Positions 7,231 to 23,424 of a stretch of 32,000 bases of DNA are shown here, in pieces (position 1 is the stretch's first letter; every line of letters starts with the position of its first letter). Source of the DNA: Candidatus Saccharimonadota bacterium (GTDB lineage: Bacteria > Patescibacteriota > Saccharimonadia > Saccharimonadales > UBA4665); contig OY970322.1 of assembly GCA_963716945.1 (NCBI GenBank), forward strand, positions 270,001 to 302,000, in the 5' to 3' direction. A program made the translations under genes and the position numbers. The notes below the pieces were generated by a model. The model was given only the letters and a program-made list of their open reading frames with translations. It was not told the DNA's origin and did no database searches.

Positions 7231-7255
7231 CGGCCCCGGCCCGCAAGCCGTTTAA

Positions 7256-7906: not shown

Positions 7907-8042
7907 AGCGTTCCTCCTGACAACTCCCACCGAGTTAGTAGGCTCACTTTACCACATAGAGTCAATATATGCAAGTCAAATCGTCGCCAAACTGCCATTT
8001 AGCAGGGGTCCGCCAGCCGTTTATTAAGCCCCGCCAATGGCT

Positions 8043-8071
8043 TTGTGCTATTGCTTATGAGGCTGTATAAT
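8043..8071 (+). promoter_or_regulatory. sigma70-like promoter TTGTGC-17-TATAAT upstream of the giant gene
   Basis: -35 at 8043-8048 and perfect -10 at 8066-8071. GAGGG lies upstream of the ATG at 8095. Confidence 0.5.
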
Positions 8072-8094
8072 GCCACTCATGAGGGTGTCTAAAG

Positions 8095-11000
8095 ATGAAG
8101 GCTGAAACCCAAAAAACCCGAAAAAAAAGGTTTCCACAGATCAATATTTCGGTCGCGGTGGGGGTCCTCTTACTGGTGGTAGTAGCCGGCCTTATCATCC
8201 TTAAAGTCACGCACAAGCACAAAGGTTTCCCGATCACCATCGGCTCTACCCGGATCACCGTTCAGGATGTTAATAACTATGCCGCGGAGCTGAAAGCTTA
8301 TTCCAAGCTGAACCCCAACTCCAACTTCGGCGGCAGCCCGACCCAGGTAGCGGTCAACGACCTGGTCCTGAACGCGGCTTTCAAACAGGAGGCCCAAAAG
8401 CTCAACAAACCCCTGACCGATAGCGATATCGCCCAAGCCAACAGTTATGGCGGCACTATGACGACCGCCCAGCAGCAGCAATACCTGGCGGTGCTCCACT
8501 CCGAAAACAAGGCCCTGCAAATCCGGGCGCAAAACATCGCTTACGAGCAAAAATTCGACAGTACTTTCATAGCCAGGAAGAACCTGATGATCGCCGGTAT
8601 CGACTTCGATACGCCTTACTTCGCTAACGCCCCCCAGTCACAAGTGCAGTCACTCTATGACCAGGCTAAAGCCCGGGTCCAGAACACCATTATGCCTTTG
8701 CTCCAGCAGAAGGCGTCCGACACCGAAATCGGCAACCACGTCGACCTGAGTTTCAAAAACGGCCTGCTGACCAAAGGCAACGACAACTATCAGCAGTACT
8801 TCCAGAAAGCCGTCCTCGATATGGATGTCAAAACCGGTTACACCGACGGCGAATCGCTGTTTAACGACATTGACAGTACCGGTTATTTGAGAGGTAATGT
8901 CGGCAAACTTTACAGCACCAACGCCAAGATCGATAGCCTCAAAAACGTCGGCGACAACACCGGCGTTTTCGCGTCTAAAGCCGGGATTTTCATGGTTATC
9001 CGGCTCGATTCCAAGACCGGCGGCAGCTACAATTCGTGGAGCGATTTCCTGGCTCATTACAAGCAGATGTACGGCCTGACTTCTACCAGCCTGACCAAGC
9101 AGCTGGGCACCAAGGTCGCCAGCTCCATCAATAACGTTGTCGAGTCGCTGGCTTCCATCGGTGAAGGGCAGGCCGACGCTACCACCGTTCCGGGTGGCTG
9201 CGGTCAGCACAACGTACAATTCACGGCCCGTTCCTGGGATACGGTCGCCAATACCCCGATCGGCGGTACCGGCACCACTTTCCAGGAGTACCGGCCGCCC
9301 GCTGGTTATGACTGCCCTGGCACGGTCAGCGGCACCGCCACGGCCACGACCGGCGGCCCCAATAATACGATTGACGATAACTGTTTTGCGCCCGCTCCGA
9401 GCTGGGCCGTTAACGCCCTGGCCAGCGGCTACACCCCGGTTAGCGGCGGCCCGTACACGCCCCAGCCCCAGCCTTACACGCCCGGGGCTACGTGGGACAA
9501 CTCGGCCGGCGGCAAAAGCGTGGCTATCCGCTCCGGCCCGGACCCGACTATCGGCAACGGCGACGACTACAACGGCTGGCCGATCTGGACGCCGGGTACC
9601 ATTAATGATACCGGCCACATTTACATAGTCTTCTTATATAAAGGCAACCCCCCTACCTGTACTGATTGTACCTGCACCGGGACTTGCCCGGTGGGCAGGA
9701 CGGTAACCTGTACCAATGTCAGCTTGGACGGTCCGTCCGGGTCGAATCAGGAATACTACGCTTGGGTCAGCGACAGCTCGGGTAATACCGAATTGGGCTC
9801 GACCGTCGTACACCACGGTTCGACCTGGAACGCCTCTTTCCAGCCGGAAGGCCAGCAGATTACCCTCTACGCCTATACGAGTACCCATAATTCTGATGGT
9901 ACGTGGACTAATGGGGCGACGCATGCCATTGCCACGTCCAGCGGCAACTGTTTCGGGGCGGTCTGTTCAATGTACGTTGACGGTAATTTGCCGGATGGCG
10001 GCGTCCTGGCCGGCACTAACTATACGGTGACGGTTACTTTCTCGAATACTAGCCAGCCGGGCGTGACGTTACCGAGTTCCGTTCCCGGCCACGGGCTTGA
10101 CTTAACTACCGGTCCGGGCGGCGGGCCCGGTGTGGGCACCAGCATACCGCCGGGGGGATCGGCTACGTTCTCGTTTACTCAAACGGCGGGCGGGCCCGGC
10201 ACGGGGTCAGTCAGCGGTTACCCCGATTATCACGGCGCCTTCGCCTTAGGGTCGTCGTGCGGCACCAGCTTCAATATCGAAACCAGGTCGGCGTCATGTA
10301 CCATCAATAGTATCGTCGGCACCTTGCCGGGAGGTTATGTTCAGGCCGGCAAGTCGTTCACGGTTAACGCGACGGTCACCAACACCGGTACCTCGGAACT
10401 GGCGTCTTCGGACAACGGCAATCCTTTCTCGCTGAACGCCGGCGACAACAGCGGCGCCAACAGCTACTGGGGCTTCCCCGATAATAATCTCGGAGTGTCG
10501 TTATTCCCCGGACAGTCGGTGCCGGTGTCGTTCACCATTTCCGACGCTAACCTGCCCAGTCCGCCCAATCCGGCCCAGGAAGCCATCTGGGCGCACGTGG
10601 CCTATTCCAACGACTTCAACCTAGGGGGGCAGTGTACGGCTAACGTCGATATGTACGTGCCTTTCGGATTGACGGGCGGGTCGTCTTCGAGTCCAGTCCC
10701 CAGCACCGAGGACCCGACCTCTTTGACCTATAAGACCTGGGTAAATAACTCGGCCCCGGTCGCGGTATCGATACCCGCCGCCGACGGCACCAGCGTCAGC
10801 TCGGTTTACGAAAAGCCGGCCGGCGGCGGCACGCGCGTTATTGTTCCCGGCTATGACGATAGCGGGCCATTCGCGGCCGGCGCCCAGACCGTCATACTAA
10901 ACGGCAGCTCGTCGATTCTGCCGCCGCTCCAGGCCGGCGACGCCTACTATGCCGAAATCGACGTGCCGTTCACGTCGGCTTACGTTGGCGCCAATGGTCC

Positions 11001-12357
11001 CGGTGACGTCGTCGACCCCACGACGCCTGCGACCTATCCGGCCCACTTCACGGTTCAGAACACACCGTTCTTCAAAGTCTATAACGGCAGCGCTTCGGCC
11101 GGCGGCGCCTTTAAGTCGGCCAGCCCGAACTGCAGCGGCGGCGGTGTCCTGGCCAGCTGGAACAACGACAGCGGCACCTACCCGTCCGGCGACTTCGGGG
11201 CCTCGGCCCAGATAGGGGCCTTGGCCCTGGGTCCGATTACCGGTTTTGCCAGCAACCAGTCGGCTTTCAGCAATAACCCTGCCGGTTTGAGTTTCGCCAA
11301 CTCCGTGCTGGCCGATAAGTCACCGCCCGACACCTACAGTCCGGCTTTGGGGGGTAACTTCAATACCGCCCCCGGCGCCGGCGATTGTTTCACCGATGTC
11401 ATACCACCGGCCGGCGTTACGCCGACCGCCGGTCCGGTAACCATTGGCGGCCGGACGGTTTCACCCGGTGCCAGCCAGAACCAGTCGGTCTTCGTCAATG
11501 GCGCCAACGGCAACGTCTATATATCGGGCAACATCTTATATAAGGGCGACAACGGTCTGACCGGTTCGGCCGCCGCCTGGAACAGCCCCAGCGACGTGCC
11601 GTCATTCGTGGTCCACGCTACTGGCAATATTTATATCGGCTCGAACGTTACCGAACTTGACGGCCTGTACGAAGCCAACGGCAAGATTTACACCTGCGCC
11701 CAAAACACCGTTCCGTACTCCGCTGTACCTTTCAACCAGATGTACACCAAGTGTAATAAGCAACTGACCGTCTACGGCAAATTCGTCGCCAACCAAATCA
11801 ACATGGCGCGCACCTTCGGGTCGCTGCGCGACGAGACGCCGATACCCGGTACGGCGCCTACGCTGGCCGCCGGCGAACAACTGAGCAAGCCTCCCCAGCG
11901 TCGCCCGACACAGTACGTCCACATTTGCAATGTCGGCTCCACCACCTACATCACCCAAGGCAGCCCCAATTGTCTGCCCGGCGGTAGCTATTCGGGTGAC
12001 TACGGACCGGGCGTTCCCGGTACCACTTATGACATCCCTTGCTATAACCTGACCGGCACCGTCATACGTCTGGTTTACATATCCGCTCCCGAAACCTGCC
12101 CGGCCGGCACCACGGCCGTCGGCGCCAGCTTGCCCGGCGGTACGCCGGCCCACGCGCCGTCGCCGGCCGAATTGGCCGCTCTGAATTCCGGCACCGGCTG
12201 CAGCAATAACGGCGGCGGCTGGCTGTCCCCGCAAACCTGCGCCGCCGAAGTCTTCTACGCCACGCCGGAGCTTTACCTATCGTCGCCGGCCCTCGGCCAA
12301 CCGAGTTACGGGGCGCCGCAATGGGATTCGATAACCAGTTTGCCGCCGCTGCTATGA
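8095..12357 (+). CDS. giant membrane-anchored surface protein: N-terminal signal-anchor, PpiD/SurA-like module, Cys-rich cluster, two CARDB-like modules, Gly/Asn/Thr-rich C-terminal region
   Basis: 1,420-aa uninterrupted ORF with its own promoter and SD. TM segment 'INISVAVGVLLLVVVAGLIILKV'. See findings for the domain reasoning. No named family recognised for the C-terminal ~570 aa. Confidence 0.85.
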   Translation: MKAETQKTRKKRFPQINISVAVGVLLLVVVAGLIILKVTHKHKGFPITIGSTRITVQDVNNYAAELKAYSKLNPNSNFGGSPTQVAVNDLVLNAAFKQEAQKLNKPLTDSDIAQANSYGGTMTTAQQQQYLAVLHSENKALQIRAQNIAYEQKFDSTFIARKNLMIAGIDFDTPYFANAPQSQVQSLYDQAKARVQNTIMPLLQQKASDTEIGNHVDLSFKNGLLTKGNDNYQQYFQKAVLDMDVKTGYTDGESLFNDIDSTGYLRGNVGKLYSTNAKIDSLKNVGDNTGVFASKAGIFMVIRLDSKTGGSYNSWSDFLAHYKQMYGLTSTSLTKQLGTKVASSINNVVESLASIGEGQADATTVPGGCGQHNVQFTARSWDTVANTPIGGTGTTFQEYRPPAGYDCPGTVSGTATATTGGPNNTIDDNCFAPAPSWAVNALASGYTPVSGGPYTPQPQPYTPGATWDNSAGGKSVAIRSGPDPTIGNGDDYNGWPIWTPGTINDTGHIYIVFLYKGNPPTCTDCTCTGTCPVGRTVTCTNVSLDGPSGSNQEYYAWVSDSSGNTELGSTVVHHGSTWNASFQPEGQQITLYAYTSTHNSDGTWTNGATHAIATSSGNCFGAVCSMYVDGNLPDGGVLAGTNYTVTVTFSNTSQPGVTLPSSVPGHGLDLTTGPGGGPGVGTSIPPGGSATFSFTQTAGGPGTGSVSGYPDYHGAFALGSSCGTSFNIETRSASCTINSIVGTLPGGYVQAGKSFTVNATVTNTGTSELASSDNGNPFSLNAGDNSGANSYWGFPDNNLGVSLFPGQSVPVSFTISDANLPSPPNPAQEAIWAHVAYSNDFNLGGQCTANVDMYVPFGLTGGSSSSPVPSTEDPTSLTYKTWVNNSAPVAVSIPAADGTSVSSVYEKPAGGGTRVIVPGYDDSGPFAAGAQTVILNGSSSILPPLQAGDAYYAEIDVPFTSAYVGANGPGDVVDPTTPATYPAHFTVQNTPFFKVYNGSASAGGAFKSASPNCSGGGVLASWNNDSGTYPSGDFGASAQIGALALGPITGFASNQSAFSNNPAGLSFANSVLADKSPPDTYSPALGGNFNTAPGAGDCFTDVIPPAGVTPTAGPVTIGGRTVSPGASQNQSVFVNGANGNVYISGNILYKGDNGLTGSAAAWNSPSDVPSFVVHATGNIYIGSNVTELDGLYEANGKIYTCAQNTVPYSAVPFNQMYTKCNKQLTVYGKFVANQINMARTFGSLRDETPIPGTAPTLAAGEQLSKPPQRRPTQYVHICNVGSTTYITQGSPNCLPGGSYSGDYGPGVPGTTYDIPCYNLTGTVIRLVYISAPETCPAGTTAVGASLPGGTPAHAPSPAELAALNSGTGCSNNGGGWLSPQTCAAEVFYATPELYLSSPALGQPSYGAPQWDSITSLPPLL

Positions 12358-12450
12358 TACAATTACTAATGAAGTTCAGAAAAAGCATAAACAGGAAATA
12401 GATATAAAATGGGTGGGCCGACAAACCAGTTTATAAGACGTTTTTCTCGA

Positions 12451-12563: not shown

Positions 12564-13601
12564 ATGAGCTTGCTCGCCAGTAAATCCGAATTCTTCAGCC
12601 TGGACATAGGTACCACAGCCGTCCGCCTGGTACAACTGCACAGTGCCGGCAATCAGCTTAGCCTTGTCAAATACGCCTACGTACCACTCGACAGCAACCT
12701 TTCGCTCAGCGAAGCAAAGGGCGACCAGCAGAAACTGGCCCAGGCTATCAAGCAGCTGGTCGACCGCGCCCATGTCAGTACCCGCAACGTGGCCGTCGGC
12801 ATACCATCGAACCGCGTTTTCACGACCGTTGCCGACGTCGAGCGCCTGCCGGCCAACGAACTCGCCAAATCAATCCGCTACCAGGCCGACTCCCTGATTC
12901 CGACACCGCTGGCCGAATCCAAGATCGACTGGACGCTAATCGGCGATTCGCCGGTCGACAAGACCAAGCAGGAAATCCTGCTGACCAGCGTGCCCAACAA
13001 ATTCGTCGAGGAACGCCTGGATCTGCTAGAGTCGATCGGCCTGAACGTCATCGCTTTCGAGCCCGACAACCTCGCTATGGCGCGGGCCTTGGCCGTGCCG
13101 GAAGCCGGCGCCCAGCTCTTGCTTGACGTCGGCCGCCGCTCGACCGACCTGGTCGTCGTCCTGAGCGGCACGCCGCACCTGACCCGCAGTATCCCGACCG
13201 GTGTCGAGGCAATTGTCCGGGCGGCTACCCAGAACCTCAACATCGACGAGAAGCAAGCCGAACAGTTCGTCTTCAAGTTCGGTCTCAGCAAAGAAAAGCT
13301 CGAGGGCCAGGTCTTCCACGCCATCACCGGCACGATCGACCTGCTGAGCACCGAGATCGAGAAGTCCATCAAGTTCTTCCAGACCCGTTACGTCGGCTCC
13401 AAAATCGAAAAGATCATCGTCACCGGCGGCGCCTCGGTCATCCCCGAATTTCCCCTGTACATGGCTAACAAGTTCGGCCTGAACGTCGAAATCGGCAACG
13501 CCTGGCGCGGCGTGTCGTACAGCCGCGACCGCCAGAACGAACTGTTGGCCATATCTAACCAGTTCGGCGTCGCCGTCGGGCTGGCGGAGAGAAACGAATG
13601 A
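12564..13601 (+). CDS. pilM: type IV pilus assembly protein PilM (actin-like ATPase fold)
   Basis: 345 aa. 'FSLDIGTTAVRLVQL' is the N-terminal phosphate-1-like motif. 'KIIVTGGASVIPEFPLYMANKFGLNVEIGN' is the typical C-terminus. The stop overlaps the pilN start (ATGA). Confidence 0.9.
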   Translation: MSLLASKSEFFSLDIGTTAVRLVQLHSAGNQLSLVKYAYVPLDSNLSLSEAKGDQQKLAQAIKQLVDRAHVSTRNVAVGIPSNRVFTTVADVERLPANELAKSIRYQADSLIPTPLAESKIDWTLIGDSPVDKTKQEILLTSVPNKFVEERLDLLESIGLNVIAFEPDNLAMARALAVPEAGAQLLLDVGRRSTDLVVVLSGTPHLTRSIPTGVEAIVRAATQNLNIDEKQAEQFVFKFGLSKEKLEGQVFHAITGTIDLLSTEIEKSIKFFQTRYVGSKIEKIIVTGGASVIPEFPLYMANKFGLNVEIGNAWRGVSYSRDRQNELLAISNQFGVAVGLAERNE

Positions 13602-14311
13602 CCACCCAGCTCAACCTTCTGCCCGATGTCAAAATGGACTACATCAAAGCCCAGCGCACCCGCCGCTTGGCAATCAGCATCGCCCTGCTGGTGACCGCTG
13701 CGGCCGTCGCCTTGCTGGTCCTGTTAATCGGGGCCGAGGGCTTGCAGAAGAAGCACCTCAATGACCTCAGCCGCGATATCACCAACGACAGCGCCAAACT
13801 GCAGGCCAAGCCGCAAATCACCAAGATTTTAACCGTCCAGAACCAGCTGGAGAGCCTGACCAACCTCCACGACAGCAAACCGGCGGCATCGCGCCTGTTC
13901 GACTACCTCAACGAACTGACGCCGGCCCAGGTCGATATCACCGACCTCAAGCTCGATTTCACCCAGCAGACCGAGAGCATAACCGGCACGGCCGACTCCC
14001 TAAGTAGCGTCAACCAGTATGTCGACACCCTGAAGTTTACGACTTACAGCGTTAAGGGCACCCCGGGCAGCCAGCCGGCTTTCAGCAACGTCGTCTTGAG
14101 CAGCTTCAGCCTAAGCAAGCAGGCCGATAACAACAACCACCCGGCCGACTACACGATTACGCTGTCCTATGACAAGACCATCTTCGACATCACCCAGAAT
14201 GTCAGCTTATCCGTGCCTAGCCTGACGACGACCCGTCTCGGTGTCGCCCAGCCGCTCGATTTGTTCCAGGCCGCGCCGACGACGCCCGATACCAGCAAGG
14301 GAGGACAGTGA
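13598..14311 (+). CDS. pilN: PilN-like pilus assembly protein (bitopic)
   Basis: N-terminal 'LNLLPD' PilM-binding-type motif, a single TM, a coiled coil, then a periplasmic-type domain. Its position after pilM supports the call. Confidence 0.8.
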   Translation: MTTQLNLLPDVKMDYIKAQRTRRLAISIALLVTAAAVALLVLLIGAEGLQKKHLNDLSRDITNDSAKLQAKPQITKILTVQNQLESLTNLHDSKPAASRLFDYLNELTPAQVDITDLKLDFTQQTESITGTADSLSSVNQYVDTLKFTTYSVKGTPGSQPAFSNVVLSSFSLSKQADNNNHPADYTITLSYDKTIFDITQNVSLSVPSLTTTRLGVAQPLDLFQAAPTTPDTSKGGQ

Positions 14312-14312
14312 T

Positions 14313-14990
14313 ATGGCCAAACAACAGATCATCACTAAACGGCTGGCCATCAGCAAAGCCAATACCCAAATGGTAATCATAGTGGCGGCGGCGTCCTTCG
14401 TGGCGGTTTTCTGCCTGGTCGCATCCCGGGCCGTCTGGAGCCAGTACCGATACCAGGCCCGCGTCACCTCCGTCAAACAGAAGGCCCTGACGCAGCTGCA
14501 AAAAAACGCCATCGCCTTCAACAGCCTGTCCAGCTCGTACAACAACTTCGACAGCCAGCAGGCTAACATCATCGGCGGCAGCAAGACCGGTACCGGCAAC
14601 AACGACGGCAGCAACTCGCAAATCATCCTTGACGCCTTGCCGCCGACCTACGACTTTCCGGCCCTGACCTCCAGCCTCGAAAAAATCCTGACCAACGGCA
14701 GCTTCACCATCAGCAGCATCACCGGTACCGACGACCAGCTCAACCAGCAATCCAACGTTTCCAGCAACACCCCGCAGCCGGTGCCGATACCGTTTGCCTT
14801 TACCGTTACCAACGCCAACTACACCTCGGTCCAGAACCTGATGAACACGCTCCAGCAATCCGTCCGGCCAATCCCGGTCGATACGCTTGAACTATCGGGC
14901 GGCGTTAATAACATGACGCTGGCCGTAACTGCCCACACCTATTACCAGCCGGCCACCAGCCTGACCATAACCAAGAAGGTAGTGAAATGA
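14313..14990 (+). CDS. pilO: PilO-like pilus assembly protein (bitopic)
   Basis: The track ORF starts at 14241 inside pilN. The in-frame ATG at 14313 follows GGGAGG. It has a TM, a coiled coil, and 'ILDALPPTYDFPALTSSLEKIL', typical of PilO. Confidence 0.7.
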   Translation: MAKQQIITKRLAISKANTQMVIIVAAASFVAVFCLVASRAVWSQYRYQARVTSVKQKALTQLQKNAIAFNSLSSSYNNFDSQQANIIGGSKTGTGNNDGSNSQIILDALPPTYDFPALTSSLEKILTNGSFTISSITGTDDQLNQQSNVSSNTPQPVPIPFAFTVTNANYTSVQNLMNTLQQSVRPIPVDTLELSGGVNNMTLAVTAHTYYQPATSLTITKKVVK

Positions 14991-15244
14991 AGCAAAAAGA
15001 CGTAGTCCTCATCATAGTCATAGTTTTCATCAGTGCCGTCGTGTCGCTAATCGTGTCGAAGTCCGTCTTCGTGCCGCCCAAGAACCGGCAGCAGGAGGTG
15101 GAAGTCGTCCAACCGATTACCGCCGACTTCCCCAAGCCGGACGGCCAATTCTTCAACAGCCAGGCTAACGACCCGACCCAACTCATAACTATAGGCCAGA
15201 ATGCCAACAACGACCCCTTTAGCTCCACCACCACTACGCAGTAG
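14987..15244 (+). CDS. small bitopic membrane protein in the PilP position
   Basis: 85 aa. ATGA overlap with the pilO stop. One TM ('VVLIIVIVFISAVVSLIV'). No lipobox. Confidence 0.5.
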   Translation: MKQKDVVLIIVIVFISAVVSLIVSKSVFVPPKNRQQEVEVVQPITADFPKPDGQFFNSQANDPTQLITIGQNANNDPFSSTTTTQ

Positions 15245-15256
15245 AAGGAGCCGTTG

Positions 15257-17062
15257 ATGAGCGTATTATCGGCCACCAGTCAGCAGCAACTGGAAGACAC
15301 CCTGGTCAAAAGCGGCATGCTGGGCATGGACAAGCTGGCCGAAGCCCGGGCCGCGGCCACCAAGGCCTCGCAGCCGCTGTTCAGCTACCTGGTCAAGAAC
15401 AACTACATTACCGACGAACAGCTGACCAAGGCCAACGCTACGATTACCAAAGTGCCTTACGTCAACCTCTCGGCCGCCAAAATCGACCCGGCCGTACTGG
15501 CCTTGCTACCCAGGGATATCGCCAGGCGTTACATGGCCGTTCCCTTGGGTGAAATGCAGCACCGCCTGGTCGTCGCCATGCTCGACGCCGACAACGTCCA
15601 GGCCGTCGACTTCCTCAGCAACCGCATCGGCCGGCCGCTGAAAGTCTACGTCGCCAGCGAAGCCGGTATCCGCCAGGTCCTCAGGCAGTACGAAAACCGG
15701 CTTGATACCCAGATGAAAGAGGCTTTCAGCGCCAAGCCCGACGGCAGCGGCGGGGAAGGCGACGGCAAAGACAAGTCCCAAGCCGCCCCCAAAGGCAAAG
15801 TCATCCAGAACCTGGTCGAAGATTCGCCGATCAGCAAAGCCCTGTCGGCCATCCTGGAATTCGCCGCCCGCAACCGCGCCAGCGACGTGCACATCGAACC
15901 GCTGGAGAACGAGGTCAAGGTCCGCTGCCGTATCGACGGCGTGTTGCGCGAGGTCATGCGTTTGCCCAAGAACACCGAGCCGGCCCTGATTTCGCGTATC
16001 AAAATCTCAGCCAACCTCAAGATAGACGAACACCGCATCCCGCAGGACGGCCAGTTCACCATCCAGGTTGACAACCACGACATCGACTTGCGTATCGCTA
16101 TCGCGCCGATTGTCTGGGGCGAGCAGATCGTTATCCGTTTGCTCGACAAGTCCGGCACGTCTTTGAACCTGGACGACATGGGCTACACCGGCCGGGCCTT
16201 GCGGCTGATCCGCCACGGCCTGCAGCAGCCTAACGGCATGATTCTGACCAGCGGCCCGACCGGCTCCGGCAAATCGACGTCGCTCTACGCCTTGATCCAG
16301 GAAATCAAGAAGGACGCCATCAACATCGTCACCCTCGAAGACCCCGTCGAATACAAGATGGAGGGGATCAACCAGATACAGGTCAATCCCGAAGTGGGCC
16401 TGACTTTTGCCTCGGGTTTGCGCAGTATCCTGCGCCAGGACCCCGACGTCGTCATGGTCGGCGAGATCCGCGACAAGGAAACGGCCGCCCTGGCCGTCCA
16501 GGCCGCCCTGACCGGCCACCTGGTTTTCAGCACGCTGCACACCAACAGCGCCGCCGGTATCCTGCCGCGGCTGCTGGAAATGGGTATCGAACCGTTCCTG
16601 ATCGCCAGTACGGTGCACACCGTCATCGGCCAGCGGCTGGTCCGCCGGATCGGCGAAACGGGCCGGCAAACTTATCAATCCACCCCTGTTGAAACCGAGG
16701 CTGTCAAGCAGTCGCTGGGAGCCCTTTTGCCTCAAACGGCGGAACAGGTCGCCGCCGCCGCCGAAGATCTGGGCTACAAAAGCTTGCCCTTGGCCAACCA
16801 AACCGCTTATACTTTATATAAGGGTACAGACACCCCCGACACACCAGGCGGTTATAGGGGCCGTATGGGTCTATACGAGGTGTTTGAAGTATCGGAAAAC
16901 ATCCAGGAACTAATAATGAAACGAGCCACCAGCACGCAAATCGCTAACGCCGCCCAGGCCGAGGGTATGATTACCATGCGCCAGGACGGATATTTGAAAG
17001 CTCTGGACGGCCGGACGACGCTGGATGAGATCAATCGCGTGGCAGCCGAGGGCAACGCTTAA
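15257..17062 (+). CDS. pilB: type IV pilus extension ATPase PilB (GspE family)
   Basis: AAGGAG lies 6 nt upstream of the ATG at 15257 (the track uses TTG at 15254). It has a T2SSE_N-like N-domain, Walker A 'GPTGSGKST', 'EDPVE', Walker B 'DPDVVMVGEIRD' and His box 'GHLVFSTLHTN'. Confidence 0.95.
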   Translation: MSVLSATSQQQLEDTLVKSGMLGMDKLAEARAAATKASQPLFSYLVKNNYITDEQLTKANATITKVPYVNLSAAKIDPAVLALLPRDIARRYMAVPLGEMQHRLVVAMLDADNVQAVDFLSNRIGRPLKVYVASEAGIRQVLRQYENRLDTQMKEAFSAKPDGSGGEGDGKDKSQAAPKGKVIQNLVEDSPISKALSAILEFAARNRASDVHIEPLENEVKVRCRIDGVLREVMRLPKNTEPALISRIKISANLKIDEHRIPQDGQFTIQVDNHDIDLRIAIAPIVWGEQIVIRLLDKSGTSLNLDDMGYTGRALRLIRHGLQQPNGMILTSGPTGSGKSTSLYALIQEIKKDAINIVTLEDPVEYKMEGINQIQVNPEVGLTFASGLRSILRQDPDVVMVGEIRDKETAALAVQAALTGHLVFSTLHTNSAAGILPRLLEMGIEPFLIASTVHTVIGQRLVRRIGETGRQTYQSTPVETEAVKQSLGALLPQTAEQVAAAAEDLGYKSLPLANQTAYTLYKGTDTPDTPGGYRGRMGLYEVFEVSENIQELIMKRATSTQIANAAQAEGMITMRQDGYLKALDGRTTLDEINRVAAEGNA

Positions 17063-17080
17063 GCAGGGGAAGGGTGGAAT

Positions 17081-18148
17081 ATGCAGGCACAACCAAGGAT
17101 TGAGGTTTTACTCGACGAAGTAGTTAAGAAGAAGGCGTCCGACCTGCACTTGCAAGTCGGCCTGCCGCCGATGCTGCGTATCGACGGCGCGCTGGTGGCG
17201 GTTAACGGTTCCGACATACTTGACGAAGAGGCCGTCGAAGCCCTGGTATTCGCTATCCTCGACGAGGACCAGAAGCAAATCCTGCTCAAAGACAAAGAGT
17301 TCGACTTCAGCTTCGCCTACGGCGACCTCGGCCGCTTCCGGGTTAACGCTTTCCACGAGCGGGGCAACATCGCTGCCGCCCTGCGCCTTATCCCGAATGA
17401 GATCCTGAGCATTGAACAGCTCGGCCTGCCGCCGGTCGTCAATAAGTTCGCCGACTACCCGCGCGGCCTGGTGCTGGTCACCGGCCCGACCGGTTCCGGC
17501 AAATCAACCTCGCTGGCCGCCCTAGTCCACAAGATTAACCTCGAGAAATCAGCCCACATCATCACTATCGAGGACCCGATCGAGTTCACCCACAAATCGC
17601 AAAAGTCGGTCATCGTCCAGCGCGAAGTCCACTACGACACCTACTCCTTCAGCGCCGCCCTGCGCAGCGCCCTGCGCGAGGATCCCGACGTCGTGCTGAT
17701 CGGCGAGATGCGCGACCTGGAAACCATCGCCAGCGCCATCACCATCGCCGAAACCGGCCACCTGGTCTTCGCCACGCTGCACACCAACAGCGCCGCCCAG
17801 AGTATCGACCGTATGATTGACGTTTTCCCGCCGCACCAGCAGCCGCAAATCCGCGCCCAGCTGTCCAACATCCTGATGGCGATCGTTTCCCAGCGCCTGA
17901 TCCCGTCTATCGGCGGCGGCCGTATCGCCGCGGCTGAAATCCTGGTTGCCACGCCGGCCGTCCGCAACATTATCCGGGAAGGCAAGAGCCACCAGCTGGA
18001 AGCCGTCATCCAAACCGGTGCCGAGTTCGGCATGCAATCGATGGACAAACAGCTGGTCAACCTGGTCCACGAAGGCACGATTACCTTCGACGAGGCCCGC
18101 AACTTCGCCGTCGACCTGGACGAACTTGACCGATTGATGAGAAGCTAA
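17081..18148 (+). CDS. pilT: twitching-motility retraction ATPase PilT
   Basis: 355 aa. 'ASDLHLQVGLPPMLRIDG', Walker A 'GPTGSGKST', 'DPDVVLIGEMRD', 'GHLVFATLHTNSAAQSIDRMIDVFP', and the 'AIRNIIREGK'-type motif ('AVRNIIREGKSHQ'). Confidence 0.95.
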   Translation: MQAQPRIEVLLDEVVKKKASDLHLQVGLPPMLRIDGALVAVNGSDILDEEAVEALVFAILDEDQKQILLKDKEFDFSFAYGDLGRFRVNAFHERGNIAAALRLIPNEILSIEQLGLPPVVNKFADYPRGLVLVTGPTGSGKSTSLAALVHKINLEKSAHIITIEDPIEFTHKSQKSVIVQREVHYDTYSFSAALRSALREDPDVVLIGEMRDLETIASAITIAETGHLVFATLHTNSAAQSIDRMIDVFPPHQQPQIRAQLSNILMAIVSQRLIPSIGGGRIAAAEILVATPAVRNIIREGKSHQLEAVIQTGAEFGMQSMDKQLVNLVHEGTITFDEARNFAVDLDELDRLMRS

Positions 18149-18167
18149 CCGGAGAATGGAATAATCC

Positions 18168-19388
18168 ATGCTGACATTCAACTACCAGGCCAGAAACGCC
18201 AAAACCGGCGAGAAAGTCAAAGCCCAGGTCCAAGCCGACAACGAAGAGGCGGCCGTCAAACTGATCCGCGAGCAGGGGCTGACACCGCTGGATATCAAGC
18301 TCGAGAAAAGCAGCGGCGGCGGACGTTTCGGACGGCGCATCAAGACCAAGGACAAGGTCCTGTTCAGCCGCCAGCTGGCAACCCTGATCAACGCCGGTTT
18401 GCCGCTGGTCCAGAGCCTGCGCAGCGTCGCCAGCCAGACGACCAATAAGCCGTTCAAAGTCGTCATTAACCAGATTATCGCCGATGTCGAAGCCGGCACC
18501 GCCTTCAGCGTCGCGCTGGAGAAGCACCCCAGGGTCTTTAACCGCGTTTATATCAGCCTGGTGGCCGCCAGCGAAACTTCCGGCACGCTGGATAGCGGCC
18601 TGGAGCGGCTGGCCGACCAGCAGGAGAAGGACGCCGACATTATCAGCAAAGTCCGCGGCGCCATGATTTACCCGGCTATCGTGCTGCTGGTTATGCTGGC
18701 CGTCATGACGTTCATGGTGGTCAAGGTGTTGCCGCAGGTCCAAAGTATCTACGCCGGTTTGCCGGGGGTATCGTTGCCGCTGATTACCAGAATCCTGCTG
18801 GCCATATCACACTTCGTCATCCATGACTGGTGGGTAGCTTTGATTATTATTTTCCTGCTGATTTTCTTCGGTTCGCGCTGGGCCCGTACGCTGGGCGGCC
18901 GCTCGGTCATCGATAAGATCAAGATGAAGGCCTGGCCTATCGGGCCGCTTTACATGAAGATGTACATGGCCCGTTTCGCGCGGACCGGTACCACGCTGGT
19001 CGCCAGCGGCGTGCCGATTATCCAGGTCCTGGAGATCACCGGCGAAGCCGTCGACAACGTCCACATCAACCACTCCCTTAAGCGGGCTACGGAGAAGGTC
19101 AAAGGCGGCAAGGCCTTAAGCGAAGCCCTCGACAAGGACCCCAACTTCTTGGAACTGGTCCCCAACATGCTTAGTATCGGCGAACAATCGGGCGCCCTCG
19201 AGACCATGCTTGGCAAAGTAGCCGACTATTACGAAAAAGAAGTCGACAACGAAATCAAAACCATCAGCACCATCATAGAACCTGTCCTGATGGTCGTCAT
19301 GGGCATCATGGCCCTGACTATCGTCGCCGCCATCCTGCTGCCCATCTACGGCCTGGTTAACCAATCCGGCTTCACCAACGCCGGCTGA
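18168..19388 (+). CDS. pilC: type IV pilus platform protein PilC (GspF family)
   Basis: 406 aa. Duplicated T2SSF domains ('FSRQLATLINAGLPLVQSL', 'FARTGTTLVASGVPIIQVL') and 3 TM segments. Confidence 0.95.
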   Translation: MLTFNYQARNAKTGEKVKAQVQADNEEAAVKLIREQGLTPLDIKLEKSSGGGRFGRRIKTKDKVLFSRQLATLINAGLPLVQSLRSVASQTTNKPFKVVINQIIADVEAGTAFSVALEKHPRVFNRVYISLVAASETSGTLDSGLERLADQQEKDADIISKVRGAMIYPAIVLLVMLAVMTFMVVKVLPQVQSIYAGLPGVSLPLITRILLAISHFVIHDWWVALIIIFLLIFFGSRWARTLGGRSVIDKIKMKAWPIGPLYMKMYMARFARTGTTLVASGVPIIQVLEITGEAVDNVHINHSLKRATEKVKGGKALSEALDKDPNFLELVPNMLSIGEQSGALETMLGKVADYYEKEVDNEIKTISTIIEPVLMVVMGIMALTIVAAILLPIYGLVNQSGFTNAG

Positions 19389-19394
19389 GCCAAG

Positions 19395-19901
19395 ATGAGC
19401 CGTTTTGCCGCCGACGTCCGCCGACCCCAGCAGCCGAAGGCCGGCGGCTTTACGATCGTAGAAACGCTTATCGTCCTGGCCATGGCCGGTTTGATCCTGA
19501 TGATCGTCTTCTTGGCGATTCCGACCCTGATCCGCAACTCGCGCAACAACCAGCGCCGCCAGGATGTCCAGATCATCTTAGGCTCGGTTTCGCACTGGGA
19601 GCTCAACCACTCCGGCGACGTACCCAATACGCCGACCGACAACTTTCTCCAGTATGATACGTCCAAGCTGACATACTACGACCCGACGACCGAAATAACC
19701 TCGATGACGCTGTCGCCGGGCGCCTTGGTACCGGCCTACACGCCCGACCTCGACAAAGTTTACATCTACAACTACCAAAAATGCAGCTCCACCAGCCCCG
19801 GCAGCCCAACTCCCCAGGGGGCGGGCTATAACGACGTGGTAGCCTTGTACGCTATAGAAACCGGCAATTCGGGCGTATCGCCGGAATGCCAGCAGCTCTG
19901 A
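19395..19901 (+). CDS. type IV pilin (prepilin, class III signal peptide), pilin 1
   Basis: '...PKAGG|FTIVETLIVLAMAGLIL' is a G/F cleavage motif with Glu+5. There is a C-terminal Cys pair. It starts 6 nt after the pilC stop. Confidence 0.85.
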   Translation: MSRFAADVRRPQQPKAGGFTIVETLIVLAMAGLILMIVFLAIPTLIRNSRNNQRRQDVQIILGSVSHWELNHSGDVPNTPTDNFLQYDTSKLTYYDPTTEITSMTLSPGALVPAYTPDLDKVYIYNYQKCSSTSPGSPTPQGAGYNDVVALYAIETGNSGVSPECQQL

Positions 19902-19925
19902 GGAACCGCCCCGGATATTTTATGC

Positions 19926-19954
19926 TTGCTTTTTTCGGAACAAATAACTATCAT
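19926..19954 (+). promoter_or_regulatory. promoter TTGCTT-17-TATCAT for pilin 2
   Basis: -35 at 19926-19931 and -10 at 19949-19954. AAGGGGG lies upstream of the ATG at 19999. Confidence 0.45.
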
Positions 19955-19998
19955 CTAACCATAAGCACTTAAACCAAGCCGCAAAGGGGGCATTTGCA

Positions 19999-20478
19999 AT
20001 GCTTAACAGAATCAAGAAAACTAAACTAGAGAAATCAGACCAGGGTTTCACGATTATCGAAGTCATGATCGTGCTAGCTATCGCCGGCTTGATCCTTTTG
20101 ATCGTCTTCCTGGCCGTACCGGCCTTGCAGAGGAACGCGCGTAACACGCAGATTAAGAATGACGCCGGAACCGTTTCCGGAGGTATTTCTTCGTACGAAT
20201 CCAACAATAACGGCGCCGTACCGAACAGCATTACCGGTACCGGTACCATTACGATTAGCGGTTCGGGTGTTGACGACAAGGTCAGCGTCGGCGGCAGTAC
20301 CATAGTTAACACCACGGCTGCTACCGGTTCAGCCCCAGCCTCAGGTGCGCCGGCTCTGGGTACGATTACGGTTTACCTGGGACACCGTTGCGATGGCACG
20401 GTTTCCGCCCGGGCCACCGCTGTTTACTACTCGACAGAAACTTCTTCGGGTCAGCAGCAGCAGTGTCTGGACAGCTAA
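19999..20478 (+). CDS. pilA: type IV pilin, probable major pilin (pilin 2)
   Basis: '...KSDQG|FTIIEVMIVLAIAGLILLIVFLAVPALQRNARN'. It has a C-terminal Cys pair (C...29 aa...C), its own promoter and SD, and a strong terminator. Confidence 0.9.
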   Translation: MLNRIKKTKLEKSDQGFTIIEVMIVLAIAGLILLIVFLAVPALQRNARNTQIKNDAGTVSGGISSYESNNNGAVPNSITGTGTITISGSGVDDKVSVGGSTIVNTTAATGSAPASGAPALGTITVYLGHRCDGTVSARATAVYYSTETSSGQQQQCLDS

Positions 20479-20497
20479 TCTAGCCGCGTCTCAACAG

Positions 20498-20530
20498 CTA
20501 AAACAGGCCTTCACGGGCCTGTTTTAGTTT
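20498..20530 (+). terminator. intrinsic terminator after pilin 2
   Basis: The 12-bp perfect stem CTAAAACAGGCC / GGCCTGTTTTAG (20498-20509 and 20516-20527) has a 6-nt loop. The GC core is followed by TTTTAGTTT. Confidence 0.8.
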
Positions 20531-20531
20531 G

Positions 20532-20540
20532 TGCTACTAT
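20532..20540 (+). promoter_or_regulatory. extended -10 TGCTACTAT upstream of pilD
   Basis: TGcTACTAT is followed by 7 nt and then the in-frame ATG at 20548 (4th codon of the track ORF). This suggests a leaderless pilD start. Confidence 0.35.
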
Positions 20541-21390
20541 GTTGCTAATGATTATCGCTGTTTTGGTGGTTGTAGGCCTCTGTCTGGGCAGTTTCGTTAA
20601 CGCCCTGGTATGGCGCGTCCACGAGCAACAGGCACAGGCCTCCAAGAAGAAACCGGACAAACAATACCTGGCGCAGCTATCGGTCGCCAAAGGCCGTTCG
20701 ATGTGCCCGTACTGCAAGCACGAGCTGGCCGCCAAGGACCTGGTGCCGATTTTCAGCTGGCTCAGCCTGGGCGGCAGGTGCCGCTACTGCGCCAAACCCA
20801 TCTCGCCGCAGTATCCTCTGGTCGAACTGGCCACGGCCGGCCTGTTCGTCTTTTCCTACATCTGGTGGCCGGTACCTTTTAGTGCTGCCCAGACGGCGGT
20901 TTTTGTCCTCTGGCTGGCCCTGTTAACGGGTCTGGTGGCATTGCTGGTTTATGACGCGCGCTGGTTTTTACTGCCTAATCGGCTGATTTACCCCTTGGGG
21001 GTAATTGCCGCCGTTCAAGCTGTCATTGTCATCGCCGCCGCCAACCGGCCAGCCGTGGCCTTGCTTAACGCCGTCTTGGCGGTGATTGCCGGCGGCGGCA
21101 TATTCTATCTGTTATTCCAGTTTTCGGGCGGCAAATGGATCGGCGGCGGCGACGTCAAACTGGGCTGGCTGCTCGGCCTGGTCATGGCCACGCCGGCCCG
21201 CAGCCTGTTGCTGATATTCCTGGCTTCTATCGGCGGCAGCCTGGCCTCGCTGCCGCTCATCATCGGCGGCCGCCTCAAGCGGACCAGCCTCATCCCCTTC
21301 GGTCCTTTCCTGATTGCGGCCGCCGTTGTCGTCCGGCTTTTCGGGGCTGCCATTCTCCATTGGTATACCCGGACATTCATTACTTTTTAA
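20539..21390 (+). CDS. pilD: prepilin peptidase / N-methyltransferase PilD (peptidase A24)
   Basis: 'CPYCKHEL...CRYCAKPI' is the double-CxxC N-terminal domain. The catalytic Asp contexts are 'VYDARWFLLP' and 'GGGDVKLG'. It is a multi-TM protein. The true start may be the ATG at 20548. Confidence 0.95.
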   Translation: MLLMIIAVLVVVGLCLGSFVNALVWRVHEQQAQASKKKPDKQYLAQLSVAKGRSMCPYCKHELAAKDLVPIFSWLSLGGRCRYCAKPISPQYPLVELATAGLFVFSYIWWPVPFSAAQTAVFVLWLALLTGLVALLVYDARWFLLPNRLIYPLGVIAAVQAVIVIAAANRPAVALLNAVLAVIAGGGIFYLLFQFSGGKWIGGGDVKLGWLLGLVMATPARSLLLIFLASIGGSLASLPLIIGGRLKRTSLIPFGPFLIAAAVVVRLFGAAILHWYTRTFITF

Positions 21391-21414
21391 ACTGGCCTTA
21401 CCAGATAACGCTTG

Positions 21415-21423
21415 TGCTATACT
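21415..21423 (+). promoter_or_regulatory. extended -10 TGCTATACT upstream of the minor-pilin operon
   Basis: TGcTATACT lies 9 nt upstream of the ATG at 21433, with no SD between them. Confidence 0.4.
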
Positions 21424-21432
21424 GAAGACAAT

Positions 21433-22239
21433 ATGAAAGGTGGAAAAAAAACACCTCTTGGTTACACTATCATCGAAGTCATGATCGTGTTGGCCGTCTC
21501 CGGGGTAATGTTTCTGATAGCCGCCAATTTCATCAACGGCAAGCAAGAGAAAACAGCCTTCACCCAAGGAGTTAACGAAATGGCCTCCCGCATCCAAGAC
21601 GTTATCGAGCAAGTCACCGACGGCCAGTACAGCGACGTTTTGCTGCAGTGTTCCTGGAACGGCCCCGGCACGCCAACCACCGTTTCGCCGGCCGGTGGGG
21701 CCACGCCTACGCAGGGCACTAACTCGAGCTGCGTCTTCTTGGGCAAGCTAATGTCGTTCACCGATCCGACTACCGACCAGTACCAGGTAGTTTCAATGGC
21801 GGCCGGGCGGGCGGACGCCACCAACGGCGTCACGCCGAGCTTGGCCAGCGTCGACCCGGCGGTCATTACCAGCCTGACCACTACTTCTACCACCGACCAG
21901 TCGCTGGACGTGACCGGCATGTCGGTCACCGATTCCAGCGGTGCCAAGCACATCAACACCTACTACAATATAGGCTTCGTACAGGGGCTGGGGACCGGCG
22001 ATGGGGTCGACAGTTTCCAGTCCGGTTCCCAGACCGTCTCTTTGGTCTATTCGTCGCTCAGTCCGGCCGCGATTAACGGTGCGACGACCACGACGAACCT
22101 GGGTTTGAATACGGCCCAGGCGGCCGTTATTTGTCTGAGTGACGGCACCCAGTCCGCCCAGATCAACATGGGTACTAATGACAATCAGCTGAACGTCGAC
22201 GTTCAGCGCCTGAGTCCGGGGGCGGCATGCACCTTATAA
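21433..22239 (+). CDS. minor pilin 1 (class III signal peptide)
   Basis: 'MKGGKKTPLG|YTIIEVMIVLAVSGVMFL', with Glu+5. The track start at 21412 is a TTG inside the promoter, so the ATG at 21433 is preferred. Confidence 0.8.
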   Translation: MKGGKKTPLGYTIIEVMIVLAVSGVMFLIAANFINGKQEKTAFTQGVNEMASRIQDVIEQVTDGQYSDVLLQCSWNGPGTPTTVSPAGGATPTQGTNSSCVFLGKLMSFTDPTTDQYQVVSMAAGRADATNGVTPSLASVDPAVITSLTTTSTTDQSLDVTGMSVTDSSGAKHINTYYNIGFVQGLGTGDGVDSFQSGSQTVSLVYSSLSPAAINGATTTTNLGLNTAQAAVICLSDGTQSAQINMGTNDNQLNVDVQRLSPGAACTL

Positions 22240-22697
22240 GGCGCCTGAAACAGCCCGGCCAAACCGGGGACACCATTGTCGAAGTCATGGTCGTGCTGGC
22301 TATTCTGGGTCTGGCTATCAGCGTCTCTTACGCTACGGCTAACCGCAGCCTGCTCAATACCCGGCAGGCCCAGGAAAACTCGCAGGCCACCGAACTGATC
22401 CAGTCACAGATCGAGGCCTTGAGGACCTTGGCTGTGGCCGGCGACATGCCTAATATTTTCCAGGCCGGCCCGTACTGCTTGGTGCCGATTGTCCCGCAGC
22501 CCGCTACCGGACCGTATTACACCTTACAGGCCGGCGGCTGCTCCTACCCGCCGATACCTTATAAAGTCGCTATAGCCTACGTTAACAACCCTCCCAGCCA
22601 GCCTGATACTTTCACCGTTACGGCCACCTGGCCGGACGTGCTGGGCGAGGGTAACGACACCGTGACAACTATCTATAGGCTGCACCAGACACCATGA
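22227..22697 (+). CDS. minor pilin 2 (class III signal peptide)
   Basis: '...KQPGQTG|DTIVEVMVVLAILGLAI', with Glu+5. It overlaps the upstream gene by 13 nt. Confidence 0.75.
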   Translation: MHLIRRLKQPGQTGDTIVEVMVVLAILGLAISVSYATANRSLLNTRQAQENSQATELIQSQIEALRTLAVAGDMPNIFQAGPYCLVPIVPQPATGPYYTLQAGGCSYPPIPYKVAIAYVNNPPSQPDTFTVTATWPDVLGEGNDTVTTIYRLHQTP

Positions 22698-23410
22698 AGC
22701 GTACCCGACGAACCACCGGCTTAAACCAAACGGCTTTCACCATCGTAGAGCTAATGATAGCTACGGCCGTCCTATCGACCATTCTGCTGCTGGTAACGGC
22801 TATGATGATGAGCATCGGCAACCTGTATTACAAGGGCGTCAACCAGGCCAGGGTCCAAGATGATACGCGCAGCATTACCGATGACGTGTCGCAGCATTTG
22901 CAGCTGTCGGACAACGTTCCGCTATCGGCCGTCAGCGCCGACGGCCAGACCCACGTTTACTGTATCGGCAACACCCGCTACATCTACGTGCTCAATCAGC
23001 AAATCGGTACCGCCGCCGGCCAAAGTCCGCACGTACTCTGGCGGGACGACAACCCGACACCGGGCAGCTGTGCGGTGTCGATCGGTTTCTTGAGTAATCC
23101 GACCCCCGGCCTTAACGGCACCGAACTGATATCGCCCAATTCCAGGCTGACGGCTTTTTCGATTTCTTCGGGCTCGCCTTATTCGGTCTCGGTGGGGGTC
23201 GCCTACGGTGATGACGACCAGCTTTGCGACAACGGCTCGGCCGGCGACTGCAGTTTCTCCGGTGTCAGCCCCCACATGAGCCAGATCATCAGCGGCGCGA
23301 TTTCGCCGACCGGCCTGATCGTCTGCAAAGGCACTACCGGCCAACAATTCTGCTCGACATCCAATCTTACGACCACCGTCGTGCAACGCATAACCAGCAA
23401 CGGGAGTTAG
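22694..23410 (+). CDS. minor pilin 3 (PilW-like size)
   Basis: '...GLNQTA|FTIVELMIATAVLSTILLL', with Glu+5. ATGA overlap with the upstream gene. Confidence 0.8.
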   Translation: MKRTRRTTGLNQTAFTIVELMIATAVLSTILLLVTAMMMSIGNLYYKGVNQARVQDDTRSITDDVSQHLQLSDNVPLSAVSADGQTHVYCIGNTRYIYVLNQQIGTAAGQSPHVLWRDDNPTPGSCAVSIGFLSNPTPGLNGTELISPNSRLTAFSISSGSPYSVSVGVAYGDDDQLCDNGSAGDCSFSGVSPHMSQIISGAISPTGLIVCKGTTGQQFCSTSNLTTTVVQRITSNGS

Positions 23411-23424
23411 GAGTATAATAAGCC

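Follow-up and report, generated by a model that had tools for sequence, protein, structure and literature searches.

Saccharibacteria and other members of the Candidate Phyla Radiation (CPR) live as epibionts on host bacteria, an attachment for which their type IV pili are indispensable (PMC10633639, PMC11623550). A 32,000-nt stretch of a Candidatus Saccharimonadota genome (contig OY970322.1, positions 270,001 to 302,000), referred to here as the window and used for all coordinates below, raises the question of what a very large gene is doing directly ahead of the pilus gene pilM. The open reading frame (ORF) in question runs on the plus strand from an ATG at 8095 to a stop codon ending at 12357 (8095..12357) and encodes a protein of 1,420 amino acids, which served as the query in our searches. 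A preliminary description of this locus, read from the DNA by eye, had portrayed the gene as a single uninterrupted ORF that ends 206 nt before pilM and joins a foldase-like head to a surface body, and its length, integrity and coordinates are confirmed exactly. We find that it represents, as the first member described here, an unnamed Saccharimonadia/CPR family in which a chaperone-like head, a variable body and a conserved C-terminal end are encoded together and held in a fixed position next to the pilus genes.

The existence of this family bears directly on an artefactual explanation for so unusual a protein, namely that a frameshift or assembly join has linked a PpiD-like gene with a separate surface-protein gene. 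Word-indexed homologue searches saturated at 8,000 candidates and yielded 9-10 proteins each, and it took an exhaustive HMMER search, in which a profile of residues 1-560 was run against representatives of 50% identity clusters, to reveal the family. At E <= 1e-3 the head profile matched at least 247 clusters, of which 121 remained at E <= 1e-30; almost all representatives are 1,000-2,000 aa long and match the profile at their N-terminus. Head and C-terminal domain occur together in 117 of 155 retrieved representatives, the remainder being mostly fragments, and the same head, body and tail are found in one ORF across independent ENA, JGI, NCBI and Logan assemblies. Full-length homologues at 76%, 60% and 56% identity to the query each derive from independent assemblies and are conserved end to end; among relatives more widely it is the two ends of the protein that are conserved, the middle part and a C-terminal insert being poorly so. 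Because these full-length homologues are independent and more than 100 representative clusters share the architecture, a fusion or assembly artefact, which the preliminary description had itself raised as the outcome that would undo its interpretation, is ruled out; its probability is negligible, and it is in effect already refuted.

All named members of the family are annotated 'hypothetical protein', and their labels are mostly Saccharibacteria or Saccharimonadales (one relative is labelled Candidatus Saccharimonadales), with one Candidatus Nomurabacteria. The preliminary description did not recognise the architecture as a described one, and our literature search likewise found no account of the family, nor of any pil locus that encodes a PpiD-like module joined to a large surface body. 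A preprint on the Pam pilus (10.64898/2026.03.03.709456) was considered as a precedent and set aside, as it concerns a different, chaperone-usher-like system. The constituent parts are of known kinds, comprising a SurA-like chaperone, Ig-like modules and a pilus-locus adhesin; what is new is their combination, two unnamed conserved domains and the fixed place of the gene ahead of pilM.

That place is remarkably constant. Pfam scans define a type IV pilus locus on the plus strand (12564..24528) that comprises pilM, pilN, a pilO-like gene, an 85-aa ORF, pilB, pilT, pilC, two pilin genes, pilD and four minor-pilin-like genes, in an order that is the same in every related locus, and a gap of 206 nt separates the stop of the large ORF at 12357 from the pilM start at 12564. 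For all 12 distinct family members with readable downstream DNA (the window, P0002, P0003, P0006, P0007, P0008, P0010, P0012, P0013, P0017, P0019 and P0023, where P-numbers denote relatives and L-numbers below denote their loci), pilM is the next gene on the same strand, after a gap of about 47-206 nt, and is followed by the same pil genes, such that an adjacency first noticed in one genome proves consistent in 12 of 12 loci. It persists at head identities of about 30%, in members with an 'ELPARF' tail and beside unrelated upstream neighbours (L004, L005, L016). Narrow peptide-pattern scans of genome and metagenome contigs added no extra independent locus with downstream sequence. Three loci additionally carry tandem paralogues just upstream of the pilM-adjacent copy (L003 4858-9045, L006 4764-8957 and L008 3411-7919), and these divergent proteins of 1,395-1,502 aa possess the same head, C-terminal domain and tail.

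On the other side of the large ORF lie ychF, an MMPL transporter gene and three ORFs without a Pfam match. What lies between ychF and the large gene differs among genomes, making this interval a variable island: in the window (3423-7930) it holds the MMPL gene and minus-strand ORFs at 5638-6090, 6094-6933 and 7256-7930, and in relatives (L001-L017) a Fic/Phd toxin-antitoxin pair, MFS/ABC transporters, a beta-lactamase or nothing. A 679-aa ORF at 5191-7230 (+) also runs across both the MMPL gene and these minus-strand ORFs; it is probably spurious, as long ORFs in G+C-rich DNA can be.

A gene bordering on an island with MMPL, MFS, Fic/Phd, beta-lactamase and ABC cargo might simply encode a general adhesin or S-layer-like envelope protein that has no mechanistic tie to the pilus and owes its position beside pilM to conserved gene order or shared regulation. 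Promoter-like boxes in the gap before pilM and a body built of generic Ig-like modules are consistent with such a protein. Nonetheless, this is the only gene in the variable island that holds its place 5' of pilM and its orientation in 12 of 12 loci, including those whose heads are only about 30% identical, and when it has been duplicated the duplicates are inserted at the same site. We therefore regard an unconnected adhesin as rather unlikely.

If the gene's position points to the pilus, the head of its product points to protein folding. The query itself is matched by no domain model in Pfam, NCBIfam or PHROGs (SurA_N, Rotamase and CARDB are all absent, CARDB even at E <= 1), its sole NCBIfam hit being a non-significant one to SecE (E = 0.068) over the transmembrane segment. 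By contrast, its relatives are recognised: in Pfam searches SurA_N_3 is matched by 5 of 10 close and 25 of 36 diverse relatives (best E 1.1e-10), and SurA_N_2 by 20 of the same 36 (best E = 4.6e-12). Relative P0010 reaches 38.7 bits, above the gathering score of 27.2, over a segment corresponding to query residues ~18-140. Together with structural evidence, these matches delimit a SurA_N-like helical chaperone domain at residues ~45-158 (8227..8568, plus strand), bearing the signature I.IG.T.IT..D..Y ... A.DDLVLNAA.K.EA.K. An AlphaFold2 (AF2) model of residues 1-560 is confident over residues 45-325, with a predicted local distance difference test (pLDDT) score of 80-95, and of 80-93 in the SurA_N-like part. 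Searched with Foldseek against solved structures, the head finds YacD (5e-5) and LIC12922 (4e-4), then SurA, PrsA of S. pneumoniae and E. faecium, PEB4/Cj1289 and H. pylori CBF2; all of these best targets are SurA-type chaperones, and each alignment covers the entire target chain.

The window also encodes an ordinary PpiD-like protein at 27900-29012, and the earlier identification of this second paralogue is borne out by matches to SurA_N_3 (3.3e-14) and Rotamase (8.3e-13). A comparison of this protein with a 30-sequence profile of the family head in hhalign gave E = 1e-3 for a short match placed exactly in the SurA_N signature (A.DDLVLNAALK.EAKK..v.lt; motif A.D.LI.....K..A...gv.vt). BLASTP between the two found no match, hhalign with a 10-sequence profile and local hhalign of a 158-sequence profile against the single PpiD-like sequence were not significant, and the family head profile fails to retrieve the window's true PpiD-like protein. 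On this evidence we accept the head as a SurA_N/PpiD-like chaperone module, as the preliminary description had proposed, with the proviso that the resemblance emerges from the relatives' Pfam matches, Foldseek and hhalign and that the query alone matches no SurA_N model.

Within this module, residues ~159-312 (8569..9030, plus strand) form an alpha/beta insert predicted by AF2 as beta-alpha3-beta-alpha-beta2 with pLDDT 80-95. The insert had been read as a parvulin domain without its catalytic His, and the second half of that statement stands: family alignments contain no invariant His or Cys within residues 159-312, and an invariant M300 occupies the position of the His of active parvulins, in a strand G-x-x-M-I-x-R-L that aligns to G-F-L-I-V-R-L of PpiD. 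The first half is plausible at the level of the predicted fold, which the whole-chain Foldseek alignments to PrsA and SurA favour; Pfam models Rotamase, Rotamase_2 and Rotamase_3 match neither the query nor any of 46 relatives scanned. Nothing significant emerged when the query and three family profiles were searched against the sequences of Protein Data Bank (PDB) chains, and the parvulin domain of E. coli PpiD (2kgj) recurs in these profile searches as the best biologically sensible match, below significance at E = 1.4 and then 0.12, with LK.vGD.T.VfaSk.G..iiRLE of the family aligned against LKEKGQLSGVIKSSVGFLIVRLD. The insert is thus probably parvulin-like and catalytically dead, a conclusion that leans on the predicted fold. 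The module is completed by a C-terminal helix at residues ~313-330 (9031..9084, plus strand; AF2 helix 315-325, pLDDT ~82) with invariant W315, L319, Y322 and K323, which by analogy with SurA and PrsA would pack back onto the N-domain.

With E. coli PpiD and with PrsA/YacD of Firmicutes, the membrane-tethered members of the SurA-type chaperones, the query shares an N-terminal membrane anchor (a transmembrane helix in PpiD, a lipid anchor in PrsA) and a SurA_N-type domain that probably contains a parvulin-like insert and is closed by a helix. These proteins also supply the best fold matches and the best sequence hints for the head. PpiD's own parvulin domain is also inactive. Proteins of the PpiD/PrsA/SurA type differ from the query in that they stand alone, at about 300-620 aa, whereas the query continues for about 1,090 further extracellular residues; moreover, the Rotamase model is unmatched in the family members scanned, and the family gene is fixed beside pilM, the housekeeping PpiD-like gene lying at 27900-29012.

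The first of these additional residues include a conserved, beta-rich Cys/His domain that has no name (residues 369-530; 9199..9684, plus strand) and is marked by invariant C369, H372, C407, C430, W498 and N504. It falls inside the head profile found in the 247 clusters, is modelled by AF2 as beta strands with pLDDT 45-70, has no Pfam match and, in Foldseek, weakly resembles Gram-positive pilin and prealbumin-like sandwiches. Overlapping its end is a dense Cys cluster, CTDCTCTGTCPVGRTVTC (C522, C525, C527, C531 and C539; 9658..9711, plus strand), that is conserved only in closer relatives. This cluster and the Cys pairs C624/C722 and C735/C847 had been noted beforehand, with every position exact.

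Three Ig-like beta-sandwich modules follow, at residues 557-622, 623-733 (C624..C722) and 734-850 (C735..C847) (together 9763..10644, plus strand), as judged from AF2, Foldseek and self-homology. The second and third are homologous to each other, a pairwise alignment of about 100 residues having 30% identity and E = 6e-7, and AF2 renders residues 557-850 as three beta-sandwiches with pLDDT 50-80. Foldseek relates this array to tandem MG/Ig arrays, among them A2ML1 (5e-7), complement C3/C5, integrin legs and SiiE. The tandem, Cys-bracketed modules that had been called CARDB/Ig-like are therefore true repeats with an Ig-like fold; the CARDB label fares less well, as PF07705 is found only below threshold and only in two relatives (P0008 at 18.9 bits, short of the gathering score of 22.7, and P0009 at 14.1 bits). 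The middle varies in content and length between relatives, other modules joining or replacing the Ig-like ones; a ricin-B lectin domain (3.4e-19) is present in one relative and Big_7 in a second. In its tandem beta-sandwich stalk and in binding modules that vary among relatives, the query resembles the Ig-like/CARDB adhesins of monoderms and SiiE. It departs from them in being anchored by an N-terminal transmembrane helix instead of an LPXTG/sortase or type I secretion signal, in lacking a CARDB match at threshold and in having a C-terminal domain and tail without a Pfam counterpart.

That C-terminal domain (residues 960-1260; 10972..11874, plus strand) is the second conserved and unnamed domain of the family, found by a local hidden Markov model (HMM) in the 117 of 155 representatives mentioned above and, across all fetched loci, restricted to ORFs that also carry the head. 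Its motifs comprise PFFKVYG.G..AGG, LASWNN, G.I.GFAS and GNVYI.GNI.Y, followed by VPS..L.A.GNIYI.P.VTELDG.Y.A, G.IYTC and CN.QLTV.G.F.A....L.RT.G. Its consensus matches nothing in Pfam, whose beta-helix families were included, or in PHROG, and family profiles match no PDB sequence. The preliminary description had suggested a beta-solenoid for the C-terminal part, a fold that we keep as putative. An AF2 model of the body (residues 545-1420), built on a 9-sequence alignment and with a mean pLDDT of 44, shows short beta strands at ~1115-1237 (pLDDT 50-77) and values below 50 for the other C-terminal residues; G.I.I-type motifs recur in the consensus.

Beyond this domain lies a variable Cys/Pro-rich insert (residues 1261-1378; 11875..12228, plus strand) that is absent or replaced in relatives, its coverage being 4-12% in P0004, P0008, P0009 and P0010 and other relatives having different inserts. 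In P0006 and P0007 the insert before the tail is swapped for a segment of ~150 aa (residues about 1400-1570) that looks, by eye, like a carbohydrate-binding jelly roll. The protein closes with a tail, ...CAAEVFYATPELYLS...WDSITSLPPLL-COOH (12229..12354, plus strand), whose conservation emerges from comparison of the 155 representatives: 63 of them end in LPPx[LIVM], within the pattern ...AAEVF.F.PE.YL...(about 20 aa)...TSLPP(V/L/I)L-COOH, and most other full-length representatives end in ...AEVFNLR.D.YLW...RE(L/V)(A/P)PR(F/Y)-COOH. Two Cys, one Leu, one Gly, R1239 and, in the tail, E1385 are invariant over 36-37 diverse members, and these invariant residues suggest that the tail may fold back onto the C-terminal domain. 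A sortase- or exosortase-type signal was ruled out for the C-terminal motif, as the TSLPPLL end has no accompanying hydrophobic segment, and reading the APRF/Y tail as an outer-membrane protein beta-signal or a PDZ ligand would be pure speculation.

How such a protein sits in the envelope follows largely from its N-terminus. A basic tail of residues 1-17 precedes a single signal-anchor transmembrane helix at residues ~18-38 (8146..8208, plus strand; AF2 helix 18-42), as had been proposed, and with 19-residue Kyte-Doolittle windows this is the sole transmembrane-grade segment, the mean exceeding 1.6 only here and reaching at best 1.21 elsewhere (residue 1034). The hydrophobic segment is 21 residues long and sequence inspection reveals no A-x-A-type site nearby. 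By the positive-inside rule, the query would be a type II membrane protein with its N-terminus inside and its C-terminus outside.

This topology is difficult to reconcile with the suggestion, made in the preliminary description, that the protein could stand in for a PilY1-type adhesin. In that role it would be carried on the pilus tip via minor pilins to mediate host binding and priming. The suggestion has a basis, in that Pfam scans of 12564-24528 find no secretin or PilY1-type gene, the minor-pilin operon at 21412-24528 lacks any PilY1/PilC-type gene, and the query shares its general layout with PilY1 of Pseudomonas and Myxococcus and PilC of Neisseria, which are regarded as attachment factors: it is a large non-pilin, encoded in a type IV pilus cluster, in which the C-terminal domain is conserved and the remainder more variable. 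PilY1 starts with a cleavable signal peptide and a vWA-type part, ends in a beta-propeller and is encoded in the minor-pilin operon. In the query, by contrast, the signal anchor of 21 residues shows no obvious cleavage site and leads into a membrane-proximal chaperone module; its gene precedes pilM, at a distance of about 9 kb from the four minor-pilin-like genes at 21412-24528; and the PilY1 and Neisseria_PilC models of Pfam are unmatched in the query and 46 relatives. The gene is also missing at the T4P1 (type IV pilus 1) locus of cultured S. epibionticum discussed below, and the tip adhesin proposed for Nanosynbacter lyticus TM7x is PilX2, a pilin-like beta-propeller protein (PMC11623550). 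PilX2 is comparable to the query as a Saccharibacterial candidate host-binding protein from a pilus locus (PMC11623550), yet it belongs to the non-retractile T4P-2 and is pilin-like with a C-terminal beta-propeller, whereas the query is not pilin-like and is encoded at a T4P-1-type locus with pilT. We consider replacement of PilY1 to be decidedly unlikely, and the least likely of the biological readings.

Is the protein then part of the pilus machine itself? Comparison with cultured Saccharibacteria is informative here. The order ychF...pilM...PH-domain gene, PpiD-like gene, tRNA-Asp equals that of S. epibionticum from SEML1_0103 to SEML1_0122, with which the window is broadly collinear save for the ychF-pilM island. 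This shared gene order identifies the locus as the T4P-1/T4P1 of Saccharibacteria, the pilT-containing twitching system, which in TM7x is retractile (PMC11623550) and whose genes are essential in S. epibionticum (PMC10633639). There, pilM (SEML1_0104) lies directly beside ychF, and the sole gene with a SurA-type Pfam/ECOD assignment is the ordinary PpiD-like SEML1_0121. Because S. epibionticum lacks the large gene at pilM, we view the latter as an accessory and not a core pilus part, and any pilus role of the family is dispensable in some lineages.

These observations tell against a core or near-core function, whether as a PpiD-like chaperone dedicated to pilins or as an envelope-spanning strut or collar that would align the pilus or guide it through the wall in the absence of a secretin, standing in for PilP/PilQ/TsaP with the C-terminal domain binding the wall, the S-layer or the fibre, given that the T4P1 is functional and essential in S. 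epibionticum, whose only SurA-type protein by Pfam and ECOD assignment is SEML1_0121. Tandem paralogues and lectin or Ig inserts are likewise traits of adhesins more than of machine components. A machine part would, for its part, explain the strict first-gene place before pilMNO in 12 of 12 loci, the lack of a secretin in the locus by Pfam scan (secretins are absent from CPR generally; PMC6744442), the fixed ends and length-variable middle, which are as expected for a spacer between two set partners, and the retention of the SurA_N peptide-binding signature in the head. On balance, we consider such a function possible and yet doubtful.

The most economical reading, in light of the architecture, family and synteny set out above, is that these proteins are membrane-anchored, envelope-spanning surface proteins that serve as a lineage-specific accessory of the retractile T4P-1 in Saccharimonadia and function in pilus-coupled attachment. 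We infer this function with moderate confidence, holding it to be about evenly balanced between right and wrong. In its favor are the variable middle with its adhesin-like ricin-B and Big_7 modules, the linkage to pilM in 12 of 12 loci, the tandem paralogues kept in place and the lack of a terminator-like site before pilM. The existence of additional close-range adhesins has been postulated for TM7x (PMC11623550), and the essential proteins of S. epibionticum include several adhesin-like surface proteins (PMC10633639).

Several points weigh against an attachment accessory. The C-terminal domain, the expected business end, is conserved and not variable, and a conserved self-partner such as the pilus, wall or S-layer fits this pattern at least as well as host binding does, which lends some weight to a strut, collar or pilin chaperone of the machine itself; the body model of this same domain mostly has pLDDT below 50. 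In addition, the query itself has no Pfam or NCBIfam match, and the parvulin assignment consists of a predicted fold and sub-threshold sequence matches. At the level of the locus, TATAAT-like boxes lie inside the 206-nt gap between the ORF and pilM, such that co-transcription is only presumed, and S. epibionticum has no such large gene where its pilM abuts ychF, its T4P1 being nonetheless essential.

Should the protein indeed be an accessory for pilus-coupled attachment, it may work as follows. The chaperone-like base would sit at the outer face of the membrane, beside the Sec/pilus platform, much as PpiD sits beside SecYEG, where it could act as a non-catalytic holdase or dock, serving either its own large, beta-rich passenger or the subunits of the pilus. 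A stalk of beta-sandwich modules would pass through the wall and bear variable binding modules, and the conserved distal domain would engage a conserved partner. Presumed expression together with the pilus would then allow close-range attachment once retraction has drawn the epibiont onto a surface or host. A more specific proposal, to which we attach a low probability and which we offer tentatively, is that the family is a CPR-specific part that physically couples pilus biogenesis to adhesion in cells lacking an outer membrane, with a dead PpiD-like base at PilMNO/Sec, an Ig-like stalk and a distal domain that grips the fibre, the tip complex or the wall. If true, this part would represent an unrecognised class of envelope-spanning type IV pilus accessory that replaces the functions of the secretin-associated proteins and PilY1 of diderms.

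The signals around the ORF give a mixed picture of its expression. A Shine-Dalgarno-like GAGGG (8081-8085) lies nine bases 5' of the ATG at 8095. Further upstream, the gene had been credited with a promoter of its own, and the boxes are present as described (8043..8071, plus strand), with TTGTGC at 8043-8048, a 17-nt spacer and TATAAT at 8066-8071. However, this candidate, read in the sequence, is weak: its -35 box agrees with TTGACA at 3 of 6 positions and a consensus promoter scan of 7850-12650 returned zero promoter-like sites against 2.2 expected in shuffles, so we take it to be no more than a chance occurrence. A scan of the region found no terminator-like site between the ORF and pilM. 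The GC content falls to 52% over 8001-9000, compared with about 60% elsewhere, owing to the Lys/Asn/Gln-rich composition of the head, and no evidence in favour of a fusion artefact emerged.

A number of further features of the window and of related loci were noted. Within the pilus locus, the 85-aa ORF at 14987-15244 (+), between the pilO-like gene and pilB, has no Pfam match; an ORF of 73-92 aa occupies this place in every related locus, and the S. epibionticum counterpart, SEML1_0107 (228 nt), was scored essential. It looks like a conserved, unnamed pilus component. The pilO-like ORF at 14241-14990 (+) has no Pfam match, PilO being faintly detectable in relatives, and its listed GTG start overlaps pilN by 71 nt; its true start probably lies near 14311, judging by the 220-231-aa products of relatives, which begin directly after pilN. 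In L015, a 92-aa GIY-YIG domain ORF (9130-9408) separates the pilO-like gene from the small conserved ORF; it may represent a homing-endonuclease-type insertion in the pil operon. Directly after the last minor-pilin-like gene of the window, 24530-25438 (-) encodes a XerC/D-type tyrosine recombinase (Phage_integrase 2e-43). At 26524-27225 (-) and 25943-26519, a cupredoxin/plastocyanin-like copper protein is encoded beside nucleoside diphosphate kinase and tRNA-Arg(CCT). The presence of such a blue-copper protein is unexpected if the organism, as assumed, has a small, metabolically reduced genome. The stretch at 27056-29167 holds the genes for a bacterial PH-domain protein and for the SurA_N_3 and Rotamase (PpiD/PrsA-like) protein, followed by tRNA-Asp, in the order of SEML1_0120 to SEML1_0122.

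Collectively, our analysis turns an anonymous large ORF into a concrete candidate for a pilus-coupled attachment or envelope-spanning factor and provides two new domain families to name. In the context of an epibiotic lifestyle, the family bears on how the type IV pilus crosses and engages the CPR envelope and on how close-range attachment may be achieved after retraction.

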